This document shows, piece by piece, positions 5,758 through 20,498 of a DNA stretch of 64,000 bases (positions are counted from its first letter, which is position 1; each line of letters begins with the position of its first letter). Location: assembly GCA_965221115.1 (NCBI GenBank), contig CBDCRU010000002.1:628172-692171 (forward strand), read 5' to 3'. A model generated the notes under the pieces. The model had not been told where the DNA came from. It did no database searches and saw only the letters and a list, made by a program, of their open reading frames with translations. Origin of the DNA: Alphaproteobacteria bacterium. GTDB taxonomy: Bacteria; Pseudomonadota; Alphaproteobacteria; SP197. A program made the translations under genes and the position numbers.

Positions 5758-6618
5758 TCACGCGTCGTCTGTCTTTCGACGCAACGGCCTCGCAAACATG
5801 CGGGGCCGCGCTTCCCTCACCATCCATCTGGATGCCGGCCGGCCGCGCCTGCTCCGCTTCACAGTCTTCTCCCCTGACGCAAGGCGATCAAGGGACGGCT
5901 CCGAATCGGAAGAGAGCTCGGCCTCTGCGCCGTCGATCGCCCCCTGACTTGGCCCAAGGAGAGCAACAGGTGGTTCCAAAACGCGAGCATGTGGGGCTGC
6001 CCGGGCGCGGACAACCGGTTCGAAGGACGACGCGGCTGTGAATGCGCCGCTGTCGCGCACGAACCTCTGGAAGTTTCCCGGATCGAGAGGAGTGTTCCAG
6101 ATCGTTTCATAAACCTTGCGCAACTCTGCGACCGTGAAGGCTGACGGGCAGAACTGTGCGGCGATTGTCGTCGTTTCGAGTCTTGAGCGGATCCGGTCCA
6201 CCGCATCCTCGACGATCCGGTCGTGGTCGAAGGCGAGACGAAGAGCGCCGCTTTCGATCCGGTCCACGGGCACGAGATCGGCAGCTGCCGCGTCGCTGCC
6301 GCCCCGGGGACGGGGAAGATTGGCGGTGATGGCCCAGAAGGCGACGGTGACTGTCCGCATGCGCGGGTCCCGCGCCGGATCGCCATAGGCGGCGAGCTGT
6401 TCAAGGTGCCAAGCGCCGCGGGCGAGGCCGGTCTCTTCCTCGAGCTCCCGGGCGGCCGCCGCCTTGAGATCCTCGTCGGGAAGGACGAAGCCGCCCGGCA
6501 GGGCAAGGTCCCCGCGGTAGGGGTCCCCGCCACGCTCGATCAGCAGAATCTTGAAGGTGTCATCCTCGATGGTGAAGAGCGCTATGTCGACGGTGACGGC
6601 AAATGGCGGATAACTCAC
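5758..6618 (-). CDS. NrtR-like Nudix-related transcriptional regulator (Nudix domain plus C-terminal winged helix)
   Basis: Perfect Nudix box GGFVLPDEDLKAAAARELEEETGL; the C-terminal region LAFDHDRIVEDAVDRIRSRLETTTIAAQFCPSAFTVAELRKVYETIWNTPLDPGNFQRFV resembles the NrtR DNA-binding domain. Start is placed at GTG 6618 (GAGGAA RBS 6 nt upstream); an in-frame ATG at 6681 lacks an RBS and lies inside the operator palindromes. Confidence 0.7.
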   Translation of the reverse strand: MSYPPFAVTVDIALFTIEDDTFKILLIERGGDPYRGDLALPGGFVLPDEDLKAAAARELEEETGLARGAWHLEQLAAYGDPARDPRMRTVTVAFWAITANLPRPRGGSDAAAADLVPVDRIESGALRLAFDHDRIVEDAVDRIRSRLETTTIAAQFCPSAFTVAELRKVYETIWNTPLDPGNFQRFVRDSGAFTAASSFEPVVRARAAPHARVLEPPVALLGPSQGAIDGAEAELSSDSEPSLDRLASGEKTVKRSRRGRPASRWMVREARPRMFARPLRRKTDDA

Positions 6619-6650
6619 GGTGATTCCTCGCTGGCTCGTCCTCGGAATAT

Positions 6651-6671
6651 TTATTGTTGTATTGACAATAA
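6651..6671. promoter_or_regulatory. 21-bp palindromic operator candidate TTATTGT-N7-ACAATAA (site 1)
   Basis: ttattgttgtattgacaataa; 7-bp arms are perfect reverse complements; lies in the divergent intergenic region between the NrtR-like gene and the operon at 6720. Confidence 0.5.
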
Positions 6672-6682
6672 TGAACGCCATA

Positions 6683-6703
6683 TAATTGTCAGTGTCACAA
6701 TAA
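6683..6703. promoter_or_regulatory. 21-bp palindromic operator candidate TAATTGT-N7-ACAATAA (site 2)
   Basis: taattgtcagtgtcacaataa; same half-site as site 1 with one mismatch; centre-to-centre spacing ~32 bp; ends 4 nt before the RBS gaaggagg of the 6720 gene. Confidence 0.5.
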
Positions 6704-6719
6704 ACTGAAGGAGGCCAGC

Positions 6720-7640
6720 ATGACCATACCCTGCCTTGAAAACGCCGCCGTAGGATCTCCAATCACGCGCCTCGGTGTCTCGTTCTTCCCTGTCTATCTG
6801 CAGGACAACCGCCTTCCGTCCATCGACACCGGCGGTTCGTCGGGATTGATCGTCAGCGAGTTCGATGTCGCGACAGTCGGGGCACTGCAGGTCACCAATC
6901 CAACTGACAAGCCGATCCTGATCGTCGAGGGTGAACATTTCACCGGCGGCAACCAGAATCGCACCATTAACGCCACCGTTCTCGTCCCGGCCGGATCCAA
7001 GCTCGATATTCCCGTGTCGTGCCTGGAACAGGGCCGATGGGGTCGCCATCGGGCATGGCGCCGCGCTGAGGCCTTCACGCCCGAGCGGATCCGGAAGAGG
7101 AAGCGGGCGAGCGTCAACAGGTCCTTCAGTGTCAACCAGGACCGCAGGAGCGATCAGGGTGCCATCTGGGACGACATCTCGGCCATGATGCTTCGTGAAG
7201 GTGTCGCTTCACCGACAAGTGCCGCCGAAAAACTGGGAGAATCCTATCGGCGTCTCCCCTCCCACAGGGAAACCGTCGAAGCCCTGGTTGAACGTGGTCC
7301 GCTTCCCGGACAGTGCGGCATTGTCGTGGCGCACGGCAGGGATGTCACAGCCATGGATCTCTTCGGTGCACCGCATCTTCTCCGCAAACACTGGGGAGCG
7401 CTGGTGCGGTCACACTTCATCGAAACCGGACAGTCCAAGGGTCACCCGTCTGCCACCCTCGCCCTCAGGAGAGTCAGGCGGCTGGCAACATCGCCGGCCG
7501 AGACCGGACCCGGTGTCGGGCTCGGTTGCGAACACCGGGTGACCGGGCGCCGTCTGACAGGCCAGGCCCTGGTCCTGGATGATGCACTGATCCATGCCTC
7601 GTTCTCGTACGACCCAGGTCGGAGCGCGCACCATGGTTGA
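6720..7640 (+). CDS. Hypothetical protein (306 aa), first gene of an operon with an ADP-ribosylglycohydrolase
   Basis: Strong RBS gaaggagg; no signal peptide or TM segments; no family recognised by eye; its stop overlaps the next gene start (ATGGTTGA). Confidence 0.6.
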   Translation: MTIPCLENAAVGSPITRLGVSFFPVYLQDNRLPSIDTGGSSGLIVSEFDVATVGALQVTNPTDKPILIVEGEHFTGGNQNRTINATVLVPAGSKLDIPVSCLEQGRWGRHRAWRRAEAFTPERIRKRKRASVNRSFSVNQDRRSDQGAIWDDISAMMLREGVASPTSAAEKLGESYRRLPSHRETVEALVERGPLPGQCGIVVAHGRDVTAMDLFGAPHLLRKHWGALVRSHFIETGQSKGHPSATLALRRVRRLATSPAETGPGVGLGCEHRVTGRRLTGQALVLDDALIHASFSYDPGRSAHHG

Positions 7641-8697
7641 TGATCGCGCGCGGGGCCTGATGGTCGGACTGGCTGTCGGCAATCTCCTGGGGATCACGAC
7701 TGAAGGGTGGCAAGCCAGGGCGATCGCCGAGGCCTTTCCCCGGGGCATGGAGGACATCGTGGCACGATCCGGGTATCCCGACGACGACGACCTGGCGCAG
7801 GCCATCATCATTGCCGAAGCAGCAACGGGCGGAGACGGTCTCGACATCGATGACCTTGGCCGGCGCTTCTGGCGCTGGGCGGAAGTGAACGGTGCGGGAA
7901 TGGGCGGACTGACCGGAGCCGTGCTGTCGCTCTACGGCGGCGACTATCCACAACGGCTCGCCCGCGGGCGCTGGAACGGCGAGCCCCGCGAACCAGCAGG
8001 CATGCCGATCATCGAGGCGTCGCGGGAGGGGTGGAAAGGTGGTCGCGCCGGGAACGGAGCACTCATGCGTACGTCACCCTTGTCGATCCTCTGGCGCGAT
8101 GACAGGGACCGGCTGGTGTGCGAGAGCGTGGTCTCGGCCGTGCCGACACACTGGGACGTGCGGTGCGGCTGGTCGTGCGCGATCGCAAATCTCGTCACGG
8201 CCGCGGCTCTCAATGGCACCTCCCTGGGTCCGGACATGCTGATGAGGGAAGCCGAGGCAGGCATGGCGGCGTCTTTGCCGAGGCTTGGGGCCTTTGGCTA
8301 TGATGTGCGGGCGCCGTACAGTGTGGTGAAGGCGGTTGACGAGGCGTCGGTCTCGACGCTGGATGACCTGAGCTTCGATGGCCACGACATGGGGTACACG
8401 TTGCTGTCGCTCCAGGCGGCGCTGATTTCCCATTGGCGGGCGGAGGACTTCGAACAGGGTCTGCGCCAGGTGATCGAGGCGGGCGGTGATACCGACACCA
8501 ACGGCGCCATTGCCGGTGCTGTGCTGGGCGCCCGCTTCGGCCTCGAGGGCATTCCCGAACGCTGGCGTCGACGGGAGGCCGAGTTAAGGGCCGGGCGCAT
8601 CCGGATGGAGGACTGCGCCGACCGGTTGATGGCCGGCGCTCGGAAAAGGGCGTCAGCTAGAACTGGCCCCCTTCTCCACCCTGACCCGTTGGTTTGA
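7633..8697 (+). CDS. ADP-ribosylglycohydrolase (ARH/DraG family)
   Basis: GLAVGNLLG near the N-terminus, GNGALMR, and GGDTDTNGAIAGAVLGARFG near the C-terminus are ARH-family signatures. Start is set at ATG 7633, overlapping the upstream stop by 8 nt; the six-frame ORF begins at 7594. Confidence 0.8.
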   Translation: MVDDRARGLMVGLAVGNLLGITTEGWQARAIAEAFPRGMEDIVARSGYPDDDDLAQAIIIAEAATGGDGLDIDDLGRRFWRWAEVNGAGMGGLTGAVLSLYGGDYPQRLARGRWNGEPREPAGMPIIEASREGWKGGRAGNGALMRTSPLSILWRDDRDRLVCESVVSAVPTHWDVRCGWSCAIANLVTAAALNGTSLGPDMLMREAEAGMAASLPRLGAFGYDVRAPYSVVKAVDEASVSTLDDLSFDGHDMGYTLLSLQAALISHWRAEDFEQGLRQVIEAGGDTDTNGAIAGAVLGARFGLEGIPERWRRREAELRAGRIRMEDCADRLMAGARKRASARTGPLLHPDPLV

Positions 8698-8724: not shown

Positions 8725-9225
8725 CTATCGCTGCCAGGTGCACTCCGCCCAGGTGACGTAAAGCGTCTCAGTCAGATAGTCGATGTCGTAGGAGCATGAT
8801 CCGGTGATACCTTCATAACTGCCGGCGCCCCCCACCAACGTCAGCTGTCCCGCGCCGCCTTCTTCGGCGGCACCATCCACACGTCTCTTGGCAATCGAGA
8901 ACAGCATGTCGCCCGCGGGATTCGCGGAGGTACAGGCCCCATCGAGTTCGGTGTTGGTGGCCGAACTCTTTCCGGACACGATGCACGACGTCCGCATGGA
9001 TCGTCCCTTGACGAAGGGCCCGCCGCTGCTATCGGCAATGGTACTGGTGCCCTCGGAGATGCCGCCGAAGATCGTCCCGTCCACATGGGGGATCGTGGCG
9101 TATTGGCTGGTCAGGCTCGTCGTGAGGGCGAAACTGCCGGTTTCCTCGGCGGCCGAGCCCTGGCCAACCTGCAGAAGTCCGGCGGCGACGGCCAGTCCCA
9201 GTGCATGTCTTCTGCCGAATGTCAT
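8725..9225 (-). CDS. Small secreted hypothetical protein (signal peptide, Cys-containing)
   Basis: 166 aa; N-terminal MTFGRRHALGLAVAAGLLQVGQGSAAEE signal-like segment. Confidence 0.45.
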   Translation of the reverse strand: MTFGRRHALGLAVAAGLLQVGQGSAAEETGSFALTTSLTSQYATIPHVDGTIFGGISEGTSTIADSSGGPFVKGRSMRTSCIVSGKSSATNTELDGACTSANPAGDMLFSIAKRRVDGAAEEGGAGQLTLVGGAGSYEGITGSCSYDIDYLTETLYVTWAECTWQR

Positions 9226-9551
9226 GGCGTTCTTCCTCGTCCTTTCAAGATGGCAAACACCGACGCTACGGTGTCAAGAAAGAACGGGGTGAACAACACG
9301 AATCTCGACGTTGCCACCTGACCCGTCATGTGTACCTGTGTGCGGCACACTTGCTGATCGTCGTCAGTCAGCGACGATTTGAACTCTCCGGGACGGGCTA
9401 CAATCGGCCTGGCGATACAGTTTGCGGACTTTGTGCGAGGCGAGGGACGAGGCAACAGCGTCACCATGGTTGTGACCCCGGCGCCTGCCAGTCATTCTCT
9501 TCGCGGATCTCGCCGGATCCGCATGGCTTCATCAGGGAAAGGGGGTGCGAA

Positions 9552-10385
9552 TTGTCACCGTACAGGAAGCCCGTGCAGTGGGAGGACCCGCGCAACAAGC
9601 TCTATCCCCACCAGGTCGTCTTCACCTGTCCGCCCAGGGACTTTTGCGGAGGGCCGACGGACTTCGTGCGCATGGCGCCCGACACGGTCGGGGTCCATGG
9701 CCGCATGCTGCACATACCCGACTACGAACACCGTCTCGACCAGCGCCTGCAGAACTTCGCGCTGCTCGAGGAGGTGGTCGAGTGCGCGGCGAACGCCGGT
9801 GCGGACGTCTGCGCCCAGGTCGGCTCGAACTGGGTCCATGCCTCGAACCTCGGGGTCGAGGGTATCCGCCGTTACATCGAGCGGCTGAGCGAGACTTATG
9901 CGACCGCGTTCCACATGGCGGGCTACGCCATGGTCGAAGCACTGCGCGCGGCCAACGTCGAGAAGGTGGCTCTCAATGCCGTCTACCACTGGCCGGACTG
10001 GTGGCAGGGGACCGTGGGCTTTCTGCGCGAGGCAGGCTTCGACGTCGTGTGGGCCGGCAATTTCGTCGACCAGGGCTGGTTCGCCAGCCAGGAAGAGCTC
10101 AATGGCCAGGTGTTCTGCTTCGACGAGGAACTGGCGGCACGATCCATGGCTTACGTTGCCGACAAGGCACCCCACGCCGACGCCTATCTCGCCAACGGCA
10201 CGGCCCACTTCCGACGTGTGTCAGATGGCGTGACCCGGCGATTCTGCGGGCTGGCGCCCGAACTCGAGGCCATGCTCGGCAAGCCCGTGATCACGCACGA
10301 CATCGCCCTCTACTGGCGCGTCTTCAAGACACTCGGCATGGCTCCCGTGACAAGGCAGGGCAGCCTGCTCGCCTCCCTGCAGTGA
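9552..10385 (+). CDS. Asp/Glu racemase superfamily protein (arylmalonate decarboxylase / maleate isomerase-like)
   Basis: C-terminal LGKPVITHDIALYWRVFKTLG and ANAGADVCAQVGSN resemble this family. Start is uncertain (TTG 9552 after aaggggg, GTG 9573, or ATG 9672); the long upstream ORF from 9201 is probably not coding. Confidence 0.5.
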   Translation: MSPYRKPVQWEDPRNKLYPHQVVFTCPPRDFCGGPTDFVRMAPDTVGVHGRMLHIPDYEHRLDQRLQNFALLEEVVECAANAGADVCAQVGSNWVHASNLGVEGIRRYIERLSETYATAFHMAGYAMVEALRAANVEKVALNAVYHWPDWWQGTVGFLREAGFDVVWAGNFVDQGWFASQEELNGQVFCFDEELAARSMAYVADKAPHADAYLANGTAHFRRVSDGVTRRFCGLAPELEAMLGKPVITHDIALYWRVFKTLGMAPVTRQGSLLASLQ

Positions 10386-14997: not shown

Positions 14998-16305
14998 TTG
15001 ACAGTTTTCGCGCTTGCTACGGCGCCCGGCCGGGCTGCCATCGCCGTGATCCGGGTCTCCGGCCCGGCTGCCGGAGAGTCAGTGAAACAACTCACCGGCA
15101 AGGATCTGCCTGCCGCCCGGCTGGCTGTGCTGCGCCGCCTTCAGAACGGCCGGTCGGGAGAGTTGATCGATCAGGCCCTGATTTTGTGGTTTCCGGGACC
15201 TGCCACCGTCACGGGAGAGGATGTGGCGGAGTTCCACGTCCACGGCGGTCGCGCGGTGGTGCACGGTGTTCTCGACGCCCTTGCGTCCGTGCCCGGTGTG
15301 CGGCCCGCGGAACCGGGGGAATTCACCAGGCGGGCCGTGCTGAATGGCAAGATGGACCTTGTGGAAGCGGAAGCAGTGGCGGATCTTGTGGCCGCGGACA
15401 CGTCACGCCAGCGCCACCAGGCTCTCGGTCAGCTCCAGGGGCTGCATTCGGCCCTCTATGACGGGTGGCGTCAGCGCCTTGTCGACGCCATGGCCCGTCT
15501 CGAGGCCGTGATCGACTTTCCCGACGAGGAATTGCCGGCCGGCCTCCTTGGCGAGAACACAGCGGTCGTCACGGCTCTCGAAGAGGAAGTGCGTGCCCAT
15601 CTTGATGACGGACGCCGCGGCGAACGGCTGCGCGAGGGCTTGAGTGTCGTCATTCTCGGGGCGCCCAATGTCGGCAAGTCGAGTCTTCTCAACGCCCTTG
15701 CCGGAAACGAAGCAGCCATTGTCTCGGCGGAGGAGGGGACGACCCGGGATACTGTCGAGGTCACCATGGACATTGCCGGCTTCGCCGTCTCCCTTGTCGA
15801 CACCGCTGGGTTGCGTGAGGTGCCGCAAGGTGTTGAAGAAGAAGGGATTCGCCGGGCGTTGACGAGAGCGGAGGCGGCTGATCTGACGCTGCTCGTTGCC
15901 GATGCCAGCCGTTGGGACGAAACCTGGCGCCGCGTCGAATCCCATTGCAGCGAGAATGCAATTGTCGTGGCCGGAAAGGCCGACCTCGCCCGTCCTCCCC
16001 CGGGAGTCTCCGGCCTTTCCGCGAAGACCGGAGAGGGGATTGACCATCTGATCGATGCCATGGCGCAGCACTTTCGGCGGGCCTGGCAGGGAGCGGGACT
16101 GTCTCCATCGCGGAACCGGCACAGGGCCGCACTTCTCCAGGTTGCGGACGCCCTTGCACGCTACGGGCATCCTGAAGCGGGCGACATCACGCTGGCTGCC
16201 GAGGATTTGCGCCTTGCGGCCACGGCGCTGGGGAGGCTCACGGGCAGGGTGGATGTCGAGGACCTTCTCGACGTGATCTTCTCGGAGTTCTGTATCGGAA
16301 AGTGA
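14998..16305 (+). CDS. mnmE: tRNA modification GTPase MnmE (TrmE)
   Basis: G-domain GAPNVGKSSLLNAL, C-terminal CIGK; TTG start. Confidence 0.95.
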   Translation: MTVFALATAPGRAAIAVIRVSGPAAGESVKQLTGKDLPAARLAVLRRLQNGRSGELIDQALILWFPGPATVTGEDVAEFHVHGGRAVVHGVLDALASVPGVRPAEPGEFTRRAVLNGKMDLVEAEAVADLVAADTSRQRHQALGQLQGLHSALYDGWRQRLVDAMARLEAVIDFPDEELPAGLLGENTAVVTALEEEVRAHLDDGRRGERLREGLSVVILGAPNVGKSSLLNALAGNEAAIVSAEEGTTRDTVEVTMDIAGFAVSLVDTAGLREVPQGVEEEGIRRALTRAEAADLTLLVADASRWDETWRRVESHCSENAIVVAGKADLARPPPGVSGLSAKTGEGIDHLIDAMAQHFRRAWQGAGLSPSRNRHRAALLQVADALARYGHPEAGDITLAAEDLRLAATALGRLTGRVDVEDLLDVIFSEFCIGK

Positions 16306-16306
16306 G

Positions 16307-16322
16307 TGTTTCACGTGAAACA
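16307..16322. other. parS: parS centromere-like site (second perfect copy)
   Basis: TGTTTCACGTGAAACA again, between the mnmE stop and the mnmG start. Confidence 0.85.
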
Positions 16323-16362
16323 ACGCTTTGACCCGCCGGTGCGCCGACACTACATTCCAGAC

Positions 16363-18225
16363 ATGACGCACGATTTTTCCCATGATGTCATCGTCATCGG
16401 TGGCGGACATGCCGGCACCGAGGCGGCTGCGGCTGCGGCGCGGTGTGGCGCAGCGACGCTTCTTGTGACCCTGCGCCGTGAGACCATTGGCGCCATGTCG
16501 TGCAATCCCGCCATCGGCGGCCTCGGCAAGGGGCACCTGGTGCGTGAGATTGACGCCCTGGACGGAGTCATGGGACTGGCCATCGATCGCTCCGGCATCC
16601 AGTTCCGTCTTCTCAATGCCAGCAAGGGCCCCGCCGTCCGGGGCCCCAGAGCCCAGGCCGACCGGTCGCTCTATGCCCAGGCAGTCAGAAATATTATTCA
16701 AGAACAACAAGAACTTGACGTTCTCGAAGGTGAGGTGTCAGACTTGGTTGTAGACACGGACGGAGGGATTGCCGGCGTCAGGCTCGCCGACGGCAGGGTC
16801 TGTCGTGGTCGTGCCGTGATTCTCACCACCGGAACCTTCCTGCGCGGGATGATTCACGTCGGTGACGAGCGCTGGCCGGCGGGACGGATCGATGAGGACG
16901 CCACCGTGGCGCTTGCCGCGACGCTCGAGCGGCACCGCTTTTCCCTTGGACGATTGAAAACGGGGACGCCGCCGCGGGTTGACGCAAGGACCATCGACCA
17001 TGCCGCCCTGGAGGTCCAACCCGGAGACGATCCTCCGCAACCGTTCTCGTGGCTGACGGACGCCATCACCGTGCCGCAGGTTCCCTGTCATGTGACGGCG
17101 ACCACGAAGGCCACGCACGACGTCATTCGCGCCAACCTTGACCGTGCGCCTGTCTATTCCGGCCGTATCGACGGTACCGGTCCCCGTTACTGCCCGTCCA
17201 TCGAGGACAAGGTGGTGCGGTTCGGCGACCGGGAAAGCCACCGGATCTTTCTGGAGCCCGAGGGCCTCCAGACCACGACGGTCTACCCGAACGGCATTTC
17301 CACGTCGTTGCCGCGCGATGTCCAGGAGGCCTTCGTCGCCACGATACCGGGTCTGACGGGAGCGCGCATCCTGCGTCACGGCTATGCCATCGAGTATGAC
17401 TACGTCGACCCGCGCCAGCTCGATCACACGTTGCAGGCACCGCGGATTGCGGGTCTGTTCCTGGCGGGCCAGATCAACGGCACCACCGGATACGAGGAGG
17501 CGGCGGGCCAGGGACTGGTCGCCGGAATCAACGCGGCGCGCTTCGCTGGAGGTCTTCCCGGCGTACGGTTTGACCGGGCAGAAGCCTATCTCGGCGTCAT
17601 GATCGATGATCTCGTCACGAGAGGGACCACCGAGCCCTACCGCATGTTCACGAGCCGGGCGGAGTACCGTCTCGTTCTGAGGGCCGACAATGCCGACCTG
17701 CGTCTCACGGCGAAGGGCCGCGAGGCCGGGTGTGTCGGCGAGGCCCGATGGCGCGCCTTCTTGCGACGCCGCAACGAGGTCGGGGCGGCCATGATGCGGG
17801 CGTCGGAACTGCGGGTCAGTCCGGACGAAGCGTGCGCGGCAGGGTTCGACGTCAATCGGGACGGTCGTCGGCGAAACCTGTTCGACCTCGCGGCTTCGTC
17901 AGGCGAGGGCGATCAACGGCTGCTGGCCCTGTGGCCGGAGATAGCGTTCTGGCCGGATCATGCCATGGACCAGGTGAGAATTGCCGGTCGCTACCAGGGT
18001 TACCTGGGTCGCATGGAAGCGGACATTGCCGCCTTTCGCCGTGACGAGGCCCTCACGCTTCCTGCCGGCCTCGATTACGCTCGAATTGGCGGACTGTCTG
18101 CGGAAATGCGCGAGACGATGTCAGCCACCCGTCCGGCCACGCTTGGACAGGCGGCACGGCTTCCCGGAGTGACACCGGCCGCCCTGCAGGCCCTGCTTCG
18201 CCATGTCAGGCGGAGTGCGGCATGA
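16363..18225 (+). CDS. mnmG: tRNA uridine 5-carboxymethylaminomethyl modification enzyme MnmG (GidA)
   Basis: [18 protein letters not shown]-binding N-terminus; ATG at 16363 chosen over the longer ORF from 16306. Confidence 0.95.
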
Positions 18226-18836
18226 TCCGCGACGAGGTGTGCCGGCTGCTTGGCGCATCGCCGGAAACATCCGAGCGCCTCGCCGCCTACGTTGCCGTTC
18301 TCGGGGAATGGCAACCGCGTCTCAAGCTCATCGGCCCCGGTACGGTTGATGAGATATGGGCGCGGCATGTACTCGATTGCGGACAGATCGCCCGCTACGT
18401 TCCGCCGACCTGCCGGCGCCTCGTGGATCTCGGGTCGGGCGCCGGTCTGCCCGGCCTGATTCTTGCCATCATGGGGGTCGCCGGCGTCGAGATGGTGGAG
18501 CGGGATGAGAGCAAGGTGGCGTTTCTTCATGCCGCAGCCAATGTCTGTGATGTCGATGTCGGCATTCACGGCATGCGCATCGAGGATCTTCCACGCGGAC
18601 AGGCTGATGTCGTGACGGCCCGTGCCCTGGCTCCCCTCGATGTTCTCCTGCCCATCACGGCCTCCTTTCTGGGTGAGGGCTCCGTTGCCATTTTCCCCAA
18701 GGGAAGATCCGTGGACGACGAACTGAAGTCCGCCGCCCGTCACTGGCACATGTGGTTCCAGCGCCACCCCAGTCTTTCGGATGCGCGATCCAGCGTTCTG
18801 GTCATCAACAGGATACACCATGACTCTCGACCGTGA
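18222..18836 (+). CDS. rsmG: 16S rRNA (guanine527-N7)-methyltransferase RsmG (GidB)
   Basis: [20 protein letters not shown] motif; start overlaps the mnmG stop (ATGA). Confidence 0.9.
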
Positions 18837-19623
18837 CCGCGTTGCACGGCCCCTGGTGGTGGCCGTCGCCAACCAGAAGGGTGGGGTGGGCAAGACGACC
18901 ACCGTCATCAACCTTGCAACCGCCTTTGCCGCCACAGGACACAAGGTCCTCGTCGTCGATGCCGATGCCCAGGGAAATGCCAGCACGGGTCTGGGTGTCG
19001 AGCAGCCGGCCAGAACCGCAACGACATACGACCTGCTGAACGGGGAGCGCGTGACTCCGGCGCCGACCATGATACCGGGCCTCACCATCATTCCGGCGAC
19101 TGCCGATCTTTCCGGTGCAGAGGTTGAACTGGTTGATGTTCCCGACCGCCAGAATGTTCTCGCAAGGGCGTTGTCGGAGGTGGCCGCCGGACATGAATTC
19201 GTGCTTGTCGACTGTCCGCCGTCGCTCAACCTGATGACGATCAACGCCCTGGTTGCCGCCGACGAGGTCCTGGTGCCCATGCAGTGCGAGTTCTTTGCCC
19301 TGGAGGGTCTCTCGCTTCTGCTCGACACCATCGAGAGGGTTTCGGGTACCCATAACCCGGGACTCCACATAGGCGGGATCGTGCTCACGATGTTCGATCG
19401 CCGGAACCGCCTGTCCCGTGAGGTGGAACGGGATGTGCGCCGCGTCATGGGGGATGTCGTCTACCACACGCTCATTCCGCGCAATGTCAGGGTCAGTGAG
19501 GCGCCATCACACGGTATGCCTGTGATTCTATACGATGTTGACTGTGCGGGCGCGCGCGCCTACGTGCGCCTGGCACGTGAATTCCTGCGCCGCCATGCCA
19601 CGCAATCAGAGAGTGCCGCATGA
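18820..19623 (+). CDS. parA: Chromosome partitioning ATPase ParA
   Basis: Deviant Walker A VANQKGGVGKTTT; start chosen at ATG 18820 ([16 protein letters not shown]...). Confidence 0.9.
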   Translation: MTLDRDRVARPLVVAVANQKGGVGKTTTVINLATAFAATGHKVLVVDADAQGNASTGLGVEQPARTATTYDLLNGERVTPAPTMIPGLTIIPATADLSGAEVELVDVPDRQNVLARALSEVAAGHEFVLVDCPPSLNLMTINALVAADEVLVPMQCEFFALEGLSLLLDTIERVSGTHNPGLHIGGIVLTMFDRRNRLSREVERDVRRVMGDVVYHTLIPRNVRVSEAPSHGMPVILYDVDCAGARAYVRLAREFLRRHATQSESAA

Positions 19624-20498
19624 CGAGATCGAGAGGCCTCGGGCGCGGCCTCGACGCGCTCATCGGAACGCCGGCAAGGACAGCTGTCTCCGGCATGCGC
19701 ACCGTTTCCATCGCGGAACTGAGGCCCGGCCGTTTTCAGCCACGCACCCGTTTCGACGATCAGGACATCGACGGCCTGGCCCGCTCTCTCGCGGACAGCG
19801 GCATGATGCAGCCCATCATCGTCAGGCCCGCTGCCGACGGCATGATGGAGATTGTCGCCGGTGAGAGACGCTGGCGGGCGGCGCAGCGGGCGAAGCTCCA
19901 CGATGTTCCGGTTGTCATCAAGGAGATGAGCGACCGCGAGGCCCTGGAACATGGTCTGGTCGAAAACCTGCAGCGCGAGGATCTCGGTCCCGTGGAGGAA
20001 GCGGCGGGCTACCGCCGTCTCAACGAGGAATTCGCCCTGACCCAGGAGGAGATTGCGGCCCTTGTCGGCAAGGGCAGGGTCCATGTCGCCAACACGCTGC
20101 GCCTCCTCCAGCTTCCCGAACCGGTGCGCAAGCTGATCAATGAAGGACAACTCAGTGCGGGCCATGGACGTGCCCTGCTGGGAGCCCGCCAGCCGGAGGC
20201 GCTGGCCGCGCGCATTCTGAAGGAGCGTCTGTCGGTGCGCCAGACCGAGGCCCTGGTGCGCAGTCAGGATCAACGCTCGGGTCGTAGCGGACGGACGAGA
20301 CACGTCGATCCCGACATCCGGGCACTCGAACGACGGCTTGGCGAGGCAACAGGCCTGAAGGTCGCGATCAGCCCGAAGGGCGAGAAAGGGAGACTGACAC
20401 TGACCTACCGGACCCTTCAACAGCTCGACGACATCATTGCGCGCCTCGAACGAGGTCTCATAATTCCAGACAACCGACAAACCGAGGAGGCATCATGA
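19620..20498 (+). CDS. parB: Chromosome partitioning protein ParB
   Basis: MTRSRGLGRGLDALIG N-terminus, the GERRWRAA ParB box and an HTH region; overlaps the parA stop. Confidence 0.9.
   Translation: MTRSRGLGRGLDALIGTPARTAVSGMRTVSIAELRPGRFQPRTRFDDQDIDGLARSLADSGMMQPIIVRPAADGMMEIVAGERRWRAAQRAKLHDVPVVIKEMSDREALEHGLVENLQREDLGPVEEAAGYRRLNEEFALTQEEIAALVGKGRVHVANTLRLLQLPEPVRKLINEGQLSAGHGRALLGARQPEALAARILKERLSVRQTEALVRSQDQRSGRSGRTRHVDPDIRALERRLGEATGLKVAISPKGEKGRLTLTYRTLQQLDDIIARLERGLIIPDNRQTEEAS

Follow-up and report, generated by a model that had tools for sequence, protein, structure and literature searches.

The window analysed in this study, a 64,000-nucleotide stretch of contig CBDCRU010000002.1 from an uncultured alphaproteobacterium, contains a three-gene cassette in which an nrtR-like regulator gene is divergent from two plus-strand genes, one encoding a protein of the ARPP-1 family and the other an ADP-ribosylglycohydrolase (ARG). 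The regulator and ARPP-1 genes are separated by a spacer of 101 bp (6619-6719), which holds two palindromic operators, O1 and O2, and two putative promoters that overlap them (Table 1). The operators are conserved, together with the divergent regulator and ARPP-1 genes, in related loci from several bacterial phyla.

Table 1. Features of the nrtR/ARPP-1/ARG cassette and its surroundings; positions refer to the window unless another locus is named.
Feature	Position	Strand	Remarks
nrtR-like regulator gene	5758-6618	minus	286 aa; likely start GTG 6618, preceded by ribosome-binding site GAGGAA
Likely wing motif RRGRPASRW	5815-5850	minus	follows a variable insertion of ~45 aa
NrtR winged-helix DNA-binding domain	5995-6156	minus	Pfam PF21906 NrtR_WHD, residues 155-208, 1.5e-8
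Intact Nudix box, G43-L65	6424-6492	minus	GFVLPDEDLKAAAARELEEETGL, read from the translation
Operator O1 (ARPP-1-distal)	6651-6671		TTATTGTTGTATTGACAATAA, perfect 7-N7-7 palindrome; counterpart in related loci
Putative ARPP-1/ARG operon promoter	6657-6686	plus	TTGTAT (6657-6662)-N18-TATAAT (6681-6686); -35 inside O1, -10 over the left edge of O2
Putative nrtR promoter	6665-6692	minus	CTGACA-N16-TATTGT; -35 inside O2, -10 inside O1
Operator O2 (ARPP-1-proximal)	6683-6703		TAATTGTCAGTGTCACAATAA, one mismatch, in the left half; counterpart in related loci
ARPP-1 (DUF6569) gene	6720-7640	plus	306 aa; AAGGAGG at 6708-6714 upstream
ADP-ribosylglycohydrolase gene	7633-8697	plus	354 aa from ATG 7633; in-frame ATG 7594 upstream; overlaps the ARPP-1 stop as ATGGTTGA
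mnmE	14998-16305		cluster mnmE-mnmG-parAB, 14998-20498
mnmG/gidA	16306-18225		same cluster
parA	18781-19623		same cluster
parB	19620-20498		same cluster
Transposase genes in related loci	L014 5990-6751; L061 5954-6958; L045 6008-7333; L086 3522-5015; L088 4048-4749, 11177-12466		adjoin the cassette

The assignment of the minus-strand gene to the NrtR type, already proposed in a sequence-only reading of this DNA, is supported by its domain content. Pfam searches detected a NUDIX domain (1e-16, residues 13-137) as well as the NrtR winged-helix domain (35.1 bits, cutoff 27), and full-length matches to solved structures were obtained with BtAraR (5bs6, 1.7e-22) and SO1979 (3gz5, 4.7e-20) over residues 2-191; the Nudix domain also aligned with 2fml in the PDB. 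The top NCBIfam model was the "ADPR responsive transcriptional repressor", ADPR being ADP-ribose (1.7e-33; 116 bits, below the equivalog cutoff of 400 bits), followed by the ADPR-pyrophosphatase domains of NadM-type enzymes. The Nudix box is indeed perfect, matching GX5EX7REUXEEXGU exactly, and of 75 ARPP-linked orthologues of the regulator, 68 keep the signature intact. An intact signature correlates with ADPR pyrophosphatase activity among NrtR proteins (PMC2330246). Because the signature is intact here, the regulator probably also hydrolyses its own inducer. Past the winged-helix helices, the motif RRGRPASRW aligns with RGRPANLY of SO1979, an alignment without statistical significance, and a [RK]..G[RK]P(A.LW) motif occurs beyond residue 180 in 60 of 76 regulators; this segment is probably the wing of the winged helix. 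Between the helices and the RGRPAxLW motif lies a low-complexity insertion of variable length (window 5851-5994, residues ~209-256), and the regulators of related loci range from ~237 to 340 aa. A mechanically called open reading frame (ORF) of 334 aa (6762 to 5758) was rejected in favour of the GTG at 6618 because the extension would span both operators and the start of ARPP-1.

The 306-aa protein had been described as belonging to no recognisable family. A Pfam search corrected this: it is a full-length member of PF20208, ARPP-1 (6.9e-64, 216.4 bits against a cutoff of 27; residues 10-295 on profile positions 3-296 of 297), a family labelled DUF6569 in RefSeq and represented by 8,137 clusters at 50% identity (E ≤ 1e-3). 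Proteins of this kind were reported to have an invariant cysteine and glutamine and a fold without known relatives (PMC9503650). The same residues are present here (C101, Q79, Q146), as read from 25 homologues in which E70, E72, H73, Q79, N80, R81, C101, E103, R106, W107, D145, Q146, H224, W225 and H292 are invariant or nearly so. The AlphaFold2 model is confident (predicted local distance difference test 83, predicted template modelling score 0.86), and its structural search yielded no significant solved relative and no ADP-ribosyltransferase (ART) or PARP fold among the matches listed; ART/PARP-type NAD-binding motifs were likewise not found in the protein. Neither PADLOC nor NCBIfam has a model for ARPP-1, and the phage genome collection yielded no homologue.

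The identification of the downstream enzyme as an ADP-ribosylglycohydrolase stood (PF03747, 1e-45, 157 bits, profile positions 1-287 of 287), as did its translational coupling to ARPP-1 through the overlap of start and stop codons. ATG 7633 is the likely start because conservation begins at MVDDRARGLM in an alignment of 15 orthologues. Structural matches include the ARG of Thermus thermophilus (2cwc), DraG (2woe) and Tri1 (6dre). Tri1 and DraG also gave the best NCBIfam matches, with 67 bits against cutoffs of 490 (Tri1) and 337 (DraG), so that the enzyme is an equivalog of neither. Candidate ligands of the binuclear metal site are the Glu of GITTEGW, the two Asp of PDDDDL, which replaces TDDT with loss of the flanking Thr, and GGDTDTNGA. 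Across the 15 orthologues, E, PDDDD, AGNGALMR and GGDTDTNGA are retained as motifs, a conservation consistent with an active enzyme.

To place the spacer in a comparative frame, 80 ARPP-1-encoding loci were collected by a profile-guided scan with one genome per species. Nearly all come from metagenome-assembled genomes (MAGs) of Alphaproteobacteria (including Paracoccaceae), Bryobacterales/Terriglobia, Vicinamibacterales, Longimicrobiales, Rhodothermales and Spirochaetia, and together they span at least five phyla; the nearest relative is an alphaproteobacterial MAG with 92% protein identity. A divergent nrtR homologue within 450 bp of ARPP-1 was retained in 72 of the 80 loci.

Both operators follow the 21-bp motif TTATTGT-N7-ACAATAA, with centres 32 bp apart, and contain the GT-N7-AC core of the NrtR family within their palindromes. 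The twin palindromes of the sequence-only reading are thus both present in the spacer, but their half-sites are not strictly identical, O2 having one mismatch. No further match at up to three mismatches was found in the 64-kb window, except a three-mismatch match overlapping O1; shuffled sequences were expected to give 0.14 matches, and three matches were reached in 0 of 100 shuffles. In the related loci, all 108 sites with at most two mismatches fall within the nrtR-ARPP spacers, which total 13,970 bp; the remaining 823,970 bp contain none. This bears out the expectation that the motif is conserved upstream of related operons. The consensus is wTATTGTc-N5-gACAATAw. Its ATTGT and ACAAT positions each carry about 2 bits of information, the middle of the spacer about 0. 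Conservation confined to the half-sites argues for the site of a dimeric transcription factor and against both an RNA element and chance composition. Two sites are present at nearly all loci. Their distance of 32 bp, read earlier as three helical turns, holds in the window and its clade, but it varies from 22 to 45 bp with a mode of 36 among the relatives; therefore helical phasing is not a conserved feature. The position of the palindromes and their half-sites are kept across phyla and they overlap promoters; they can thus be taken as genuine operators, through which the regulator almost certainly controls the operon.

The overlap with promoters is conserved, rather than the spacing of the sites. 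Of 71 loci, 67 have a sigma-70-like promoter (at least 9 of 12 positions matched) whose -35 falls in the distal operator and whose -10 falls on the left edge of the proximal operator. In the window, this ARPP-1-side promoter was recognised with a looser -35 criterion and with comparative support, since its -35 hexamer matches at three of six positions and the standard promoter scan omitted it; that scan returned the nrtR promoter as the sole promoter-like match in 6560-6780. TTGACA in O1 was also considered as a partner of TATAAT and rejected, the 13-nt spacer being too short. The view of a dual operator lying over the operon promoter therefore holds, and in the window the predicted nrtR promoter is embedded as well. 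As both promoters are embedded in the operators, occupancy of the operators would repress both transcription units, an inference that is well supported by this geometry.

The remaining gene of the cassette is less constant. In tblastn searches of all loci within 5 kb, complemented by Pfam gene calls for four examples, ARG was found downstream of or fused to ARPP-1 in about 30 of the 80 loci, almost all of them alphaproteobacterial. Gene calls in Bryobacterales, Terriglobia and Longimicrobiales showed the divergent nrtR/ARPP-1 pair only, with unrelated genes or transposases as neighbours. In an alphaproteobacterial relative with 84% ARPP-1 identity (L006), only ARG fragments are left, at 5878-6126; thus nrtR, ARPP-1 and the operators can outlast the ARG gene. 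In a Vicinamibacterales MAG (L036/L037), ARG lies downstream of nrtR instead of ARPP-1. Fusions also occur. A Paracoccaceae locus (L022, 5001-6974) encodes ARPP-1 and ADP_ribosyl_GH in one 657-aa polypeptide with both Pfam domains confirmed; single polypeptides of ARPP-1 and ARG were likewise found in the Paracoccaceae MAG loci L035, L041, L063, L054 and L028, and further such fusions in P0067 and P0109. In P0031, ARPP-1 is fused to a rhodanese-phosphatase-type domain and adjoins an enlarged NrtR. At L090 (5415-8581), a 526-aa fusion of ARPP-1 and a rhodanese/PTP-type phosphatase is divergent from an unusually long NrtR of 510 aa, with a small Unstab_antitox gene directly downstream. On a Pimelobacter plasmid, ARPP-1 occurs with a small ORF, ARG and a RecB-like nuclease; this ARG may be fused to a phosphatase domain, as judged by a DSPc match below the Pfam cutoff. 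Two Rhodothermales copies of ARPP-1 (L021 and L023, the latter equal to L083 6001-6909) and one from Vicinamibacterales (L061) lack both an adjacent nrtR and the palindrome. Among the relatives of the window, the divergent nrtR/ARPP-1 pair forms the conserved core, to which ARG or a phosphatase can be recruited as a partner.

These arrangements bear on the proposal of the sequence-only reading that the cassette is a regulated writer and eraser of ADP-ribosylation. In such a cassette, or in a toxin/antitoxin pair, ARPP-1 would be a new ADP-ribosyltransferase, ARG would reverse its action and NrtR would sense the released ADP-ribose. DarT-DarG and DraT-DraG are precedents for such writer-eraser pairs, the two genes are translationally coupled here, and the invariant residues of ARPP-1 look catalytic. 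However, the confident model of ARPP-1 shows no resemblance to ART or PARP folds in the matches noted above, the majority of the loci have ARPP-1 and nrtR without detectable ARG, and the fusion of ARPP-1 to ARG or to a phosphatase in one polypeptide fits consecutive steps better than opposing activities. The ARG systems surveyed by Iyer et al. were, moreover, chosen precisely for want of a coupled transferase (PMC9503650). A writer/eraser cassette is thus very improbable. The fusions argue instead that ARPP-1 and its partners act in one pathway.

The distribution of the core pair among genomes suggests a certain mobility. Genes for transposases of the IS481, DDE or IS1595 type adjoin the cassette in several Acidobacteriota and Gemmatimonadota loci, and these neighbours suggest that the cassette is mobile. 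Some MAGs hold two or three copies of the cassette: L036, L037 and L040 all lie on contig CAXXVU020000002.1, and L009 and L010 belong to one MAG. L036 and L037 look like a recent duplication, given their identical tblastn coordinates and identities. The names of many of the MAGs (RHO, APA, COS, Plut, SB0661, bin36/bin52 MPM*) resemble those of published sponge and coral symbiont bins; going by these names alone, many of the organisms may be symbionts of marine invertebrates. Horizontal exchange within such communities would be in keeping with the near identity of the operators across phyla. A wider reading, offered here tentatively as a possibility that is doubtful at present, is that the nrtR/ARPP-1 pair is a mobile ADP-ribose-sensing switch that has spread between Alphaproteobacteria, Acidobacteriota, Gemmatimonadota, Bacteroidota and Spirochaetota. 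Its effector would be ARPP-1, an enzyme of unsolved fold with an invariant site formed by Cys, His, Glu and Gln; its regulator would be both sensor and hydrolase, giving a pulse of response; and ARG or a phosphatase would be optional. If this is true, the pair could represent a new response to foreign ADP-ribosylation or to the burst of ADP-ribose from NAD-depleting immunity.

For the window itself, the observed gene identities, operator conservation, promoter overlap, linkage and fusions are the basis on which we infer an inducer, enzymatic activities and a biological role. The reading that we favour, and consider probable although by no means secure, is a self-repressed divergent cassette that is derepressed by ADP-ribose, that reverses ADP-ribosylation or processes ADP-ribose, and that limits its own response. 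The NrtR-family repressor would bind the two 21-bp operators, covering the -35 and -10 elements of the ARPP-1/ARG promoter and of its own promoter, so that both transcription units would be off in the uninduced state. Free ADP-ribose or a close derivative would then bind the Nudix domain and release the repressor, by analogy with the characterised NrtR proteins, which makes ADP-ribose a plausible signal. Release would switch on ARPP-1 and ARG. ARG would strip ADP-ribose from modified macromolecules. ARPP-1 most likely belongs to this pathway as well, where its substrate would be the ADP-ribose or ribose moiety or else the modified target itself. The modification would most likely come from an external source, be it a phage, the toxin of a competitor or perhaps a host, because no ADP-ribosyltransferase is encoded with the system: neither such a gene nor one for NAD synthesis was found among the flanking genes scanned (~360 to 21,700), which agrees with the earlier remark that no NAD-synthesis genes are present nearby. 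By degrading its own inducer, the regulator would probably make the response self-limiting.

Several observations weigh against this reading. The three-gene cassette is syntenic across the MAGs of the window's clade, with 82-92% nucleotide identity; it resembles the genome in GC content (0.63-0.67, against 0.635 for the window); and it sits among metabolic genes, not in a defence island. PADLOC 2.0 returned no match for ARPP-1 or ARG and only a marginal one (0.0032) for the Nudix domain. Most loci outside Alphaproteobacteria have no detected ARG within 5 kb, so the core module does not depend on ARG activity. Among solved structures the regulator is closest to BtAraR, which responds to L-arabinose rather than ADP-ribose (PMC4666351), so that the inducer of the window's regulator is not certain. 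In the literature searched, no experiment on any member of the system was found, and none on ARPP, DUF6569, PF20208 or ARG-Nudix defence systems beyond the comparative paper of 2022.

Synteny, GC content, metabolic neighbours and the want of a PADLOC match would all be expected if the cassette served housekeeping turnover of ADP-ribose or NAD, in which endogenous conjugates, for example from a sirtuin or NADase, were recycled to AMP and ribose phosphate with no role in conflict. Control of NAD metabolism is the classical task of NrtR, and an intact Nudix box would yield AMP and ribose-5-phosphate (PMC2330246). Yet the cassette is patchily distributed across at least five phyla with ARPP-1 identities of 50-60% and nearly identical operators, occurs in several copies in some MAGs, often has transposase neighbours in other lineages and is found on a Pimelobacter plasmid beside a RecB-like nuclease; a distribution of this kind is more typical of mobile accessory modules than of core metabolism. 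Nor did a motif search find the operator at any NAD gene within the 64-kb window. Housekeeping turnover is accordingly unlikely, although recycling of ADP-ribose is a real alternative in the window's clade.

The match to BtAraR, the best in the PDB, raises another explanation, namely that the Nudix domain senses a sugar, as BtAraR does, or another nucleoside-diphosphate-X, and that ARPP-1 acts on a sugar other than ADP-ribose. ARPP also adjoins a polysaccharide deacetylase-type gene and HIRAN, and sugars in general would be the common theme (PMC9503650). The intact Nudix signature, however, points to a nucleoside-diphosphate ligand; the runners-up in NCBIfam act, as noted, in ADPR cleavage; and linkage and fusion with ARG tie the system to ADP-ribose. 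A different ligand is therefore quite improbable, and ADP-ribose is retained as the proposed inducer of the self-repressed cassette.

Outside the cassette, an mnmE-mnmG-parAB cluster lies ~6 kb away. The arrangement mnmE-mnmG-parA-parB is typical of the vicinity of the chromosomal replication origin, and the window may be origin-proximal. Downstream of the cassette are two ORFs with no Pfam match (8725-9225, minus strand; 9201-10385, plus strand). The N-terminus of the 166-aa product of the former is hydrophobic and resembles a signal peptide, as judged by eye from the translation; the 5' end of the latter, 394 aa long, may be over-extended.

ADP-ribosylation and the cleavage of NAD+ are central to conflict between phages and bacteria and among bacteria, and host systems that reverse foreign ADP-ribosylation have so far been predictions only. 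The locus described here is compact and well delimited: a single regulator, a pair of operators, a pair of promoters and two enzymes. Cross-phylum conservation defines the operator, and the locus is therefore directly testable. The chief interest lies in the biochemistry of ARPP-1, a family of more than 8,000 clusters at 50% identity with no solved structure or assay.

The arrangement had been taken as unreported, but both of its aspects have precedents. Rodionov et al. (2008, NAR 36:2047, PMC2330246) defined NrtR, found most of its operators to be 21-bp palindromes with a GT-N7-AC core, and showed in vitro that ADP-ribose makes two NrtR proteins dissociate from DNA; in their view, ADPR may be hydrolysed by those members whose Nudix box is intact. 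They also described NrtR regulons not concerned with NAD, nrtR1-draG-SCO1765 in Streptomyces and nrtR divergent from nrtX-nrtY, given as of "unknown function", in Kineococcus, Frankia, Proteus and Hahella. These resemble the window in the nrtR gene divergent from a two-gene operon, in the 21-bp GT-N7-AC operators and in draG as a target of NrtR. They differ in their organisms, the window being from an uncultured alphaproteobacterium, and nrtX and nrtY, names that turned up with this meaning in no further paper of the literature searched, are not equated here with ARPP-1 and ARG. The characterised NAD regulators (Shewanella SO1979, Synechocystis Slr1690 and M. smegmatis MSMEG_3198) share with the window's regulator the Nudix and winged-helix domains, palindromic operators in the spacer between nrtR and its target, and autoregulation, and ADP-ribose is their anti-repressor in vitro. 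In contrast, they mostly have degenerate Nudix boxes and nad, pnc or prs targets, whereas in the window's regulator the box is intact and an insertion precedes the wing, and no NAD gene of the window is its target; the mycobacterial site, GTTTTCGA-N7-TCGAAAAC (PMC6800001), also differs from the operator found here. In DraT/DraG, DarT/DarG and Tre1/Tri1, a hydrolase of the ARG fold or a functional equivalent likewise reverses ADP-ribosylation; unlike these, the window has no transferase partner, and its control would be transcriptional, through NrtR, rather than stoichiometric.

The closest precedent is the survey of Iyer, Burroughs, Anantharaman and Aravind (2022, Viruses 14:1977, PMC9503650, section 3.8), who described widespread ARG-centred systems without a transferase, more than 42% of which have a Nudix-helix-turn-helix or WYL repressor and in which ARPP is a variable component. 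They proposed that such systems counter viral ADP-ribosylation, that the released ADP-ribose induces them and that ARPP acts on ribose through its conserved cysteine. The gene set of the window is thus already predicted by comparative genomics, and the locus adds a member to a computationally described kind: it has ARG, a negative one-component Nudix-helix-turn-helix regulator and ARPP, with no coupled transferase, and it is a minimal version that lacks phosphatase, chaperone, Macro/NADAR and nuclease modules. Four points may go beyond the published descriptions: an explicit consensus is given for the operator, the promoters are embedded in the operators, an intact Nudix box is nearly universal in this subgroup, and the core among these relatives is the nrtR/ARPP-1 pair rather than ARG. 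The earlier account frames the systems around ARG, gives no operator sequence and predicts an anti-viral role, whereas the relatives examined here suggest a divergent nrtR/ARPP-1 core in which ARG is optional.

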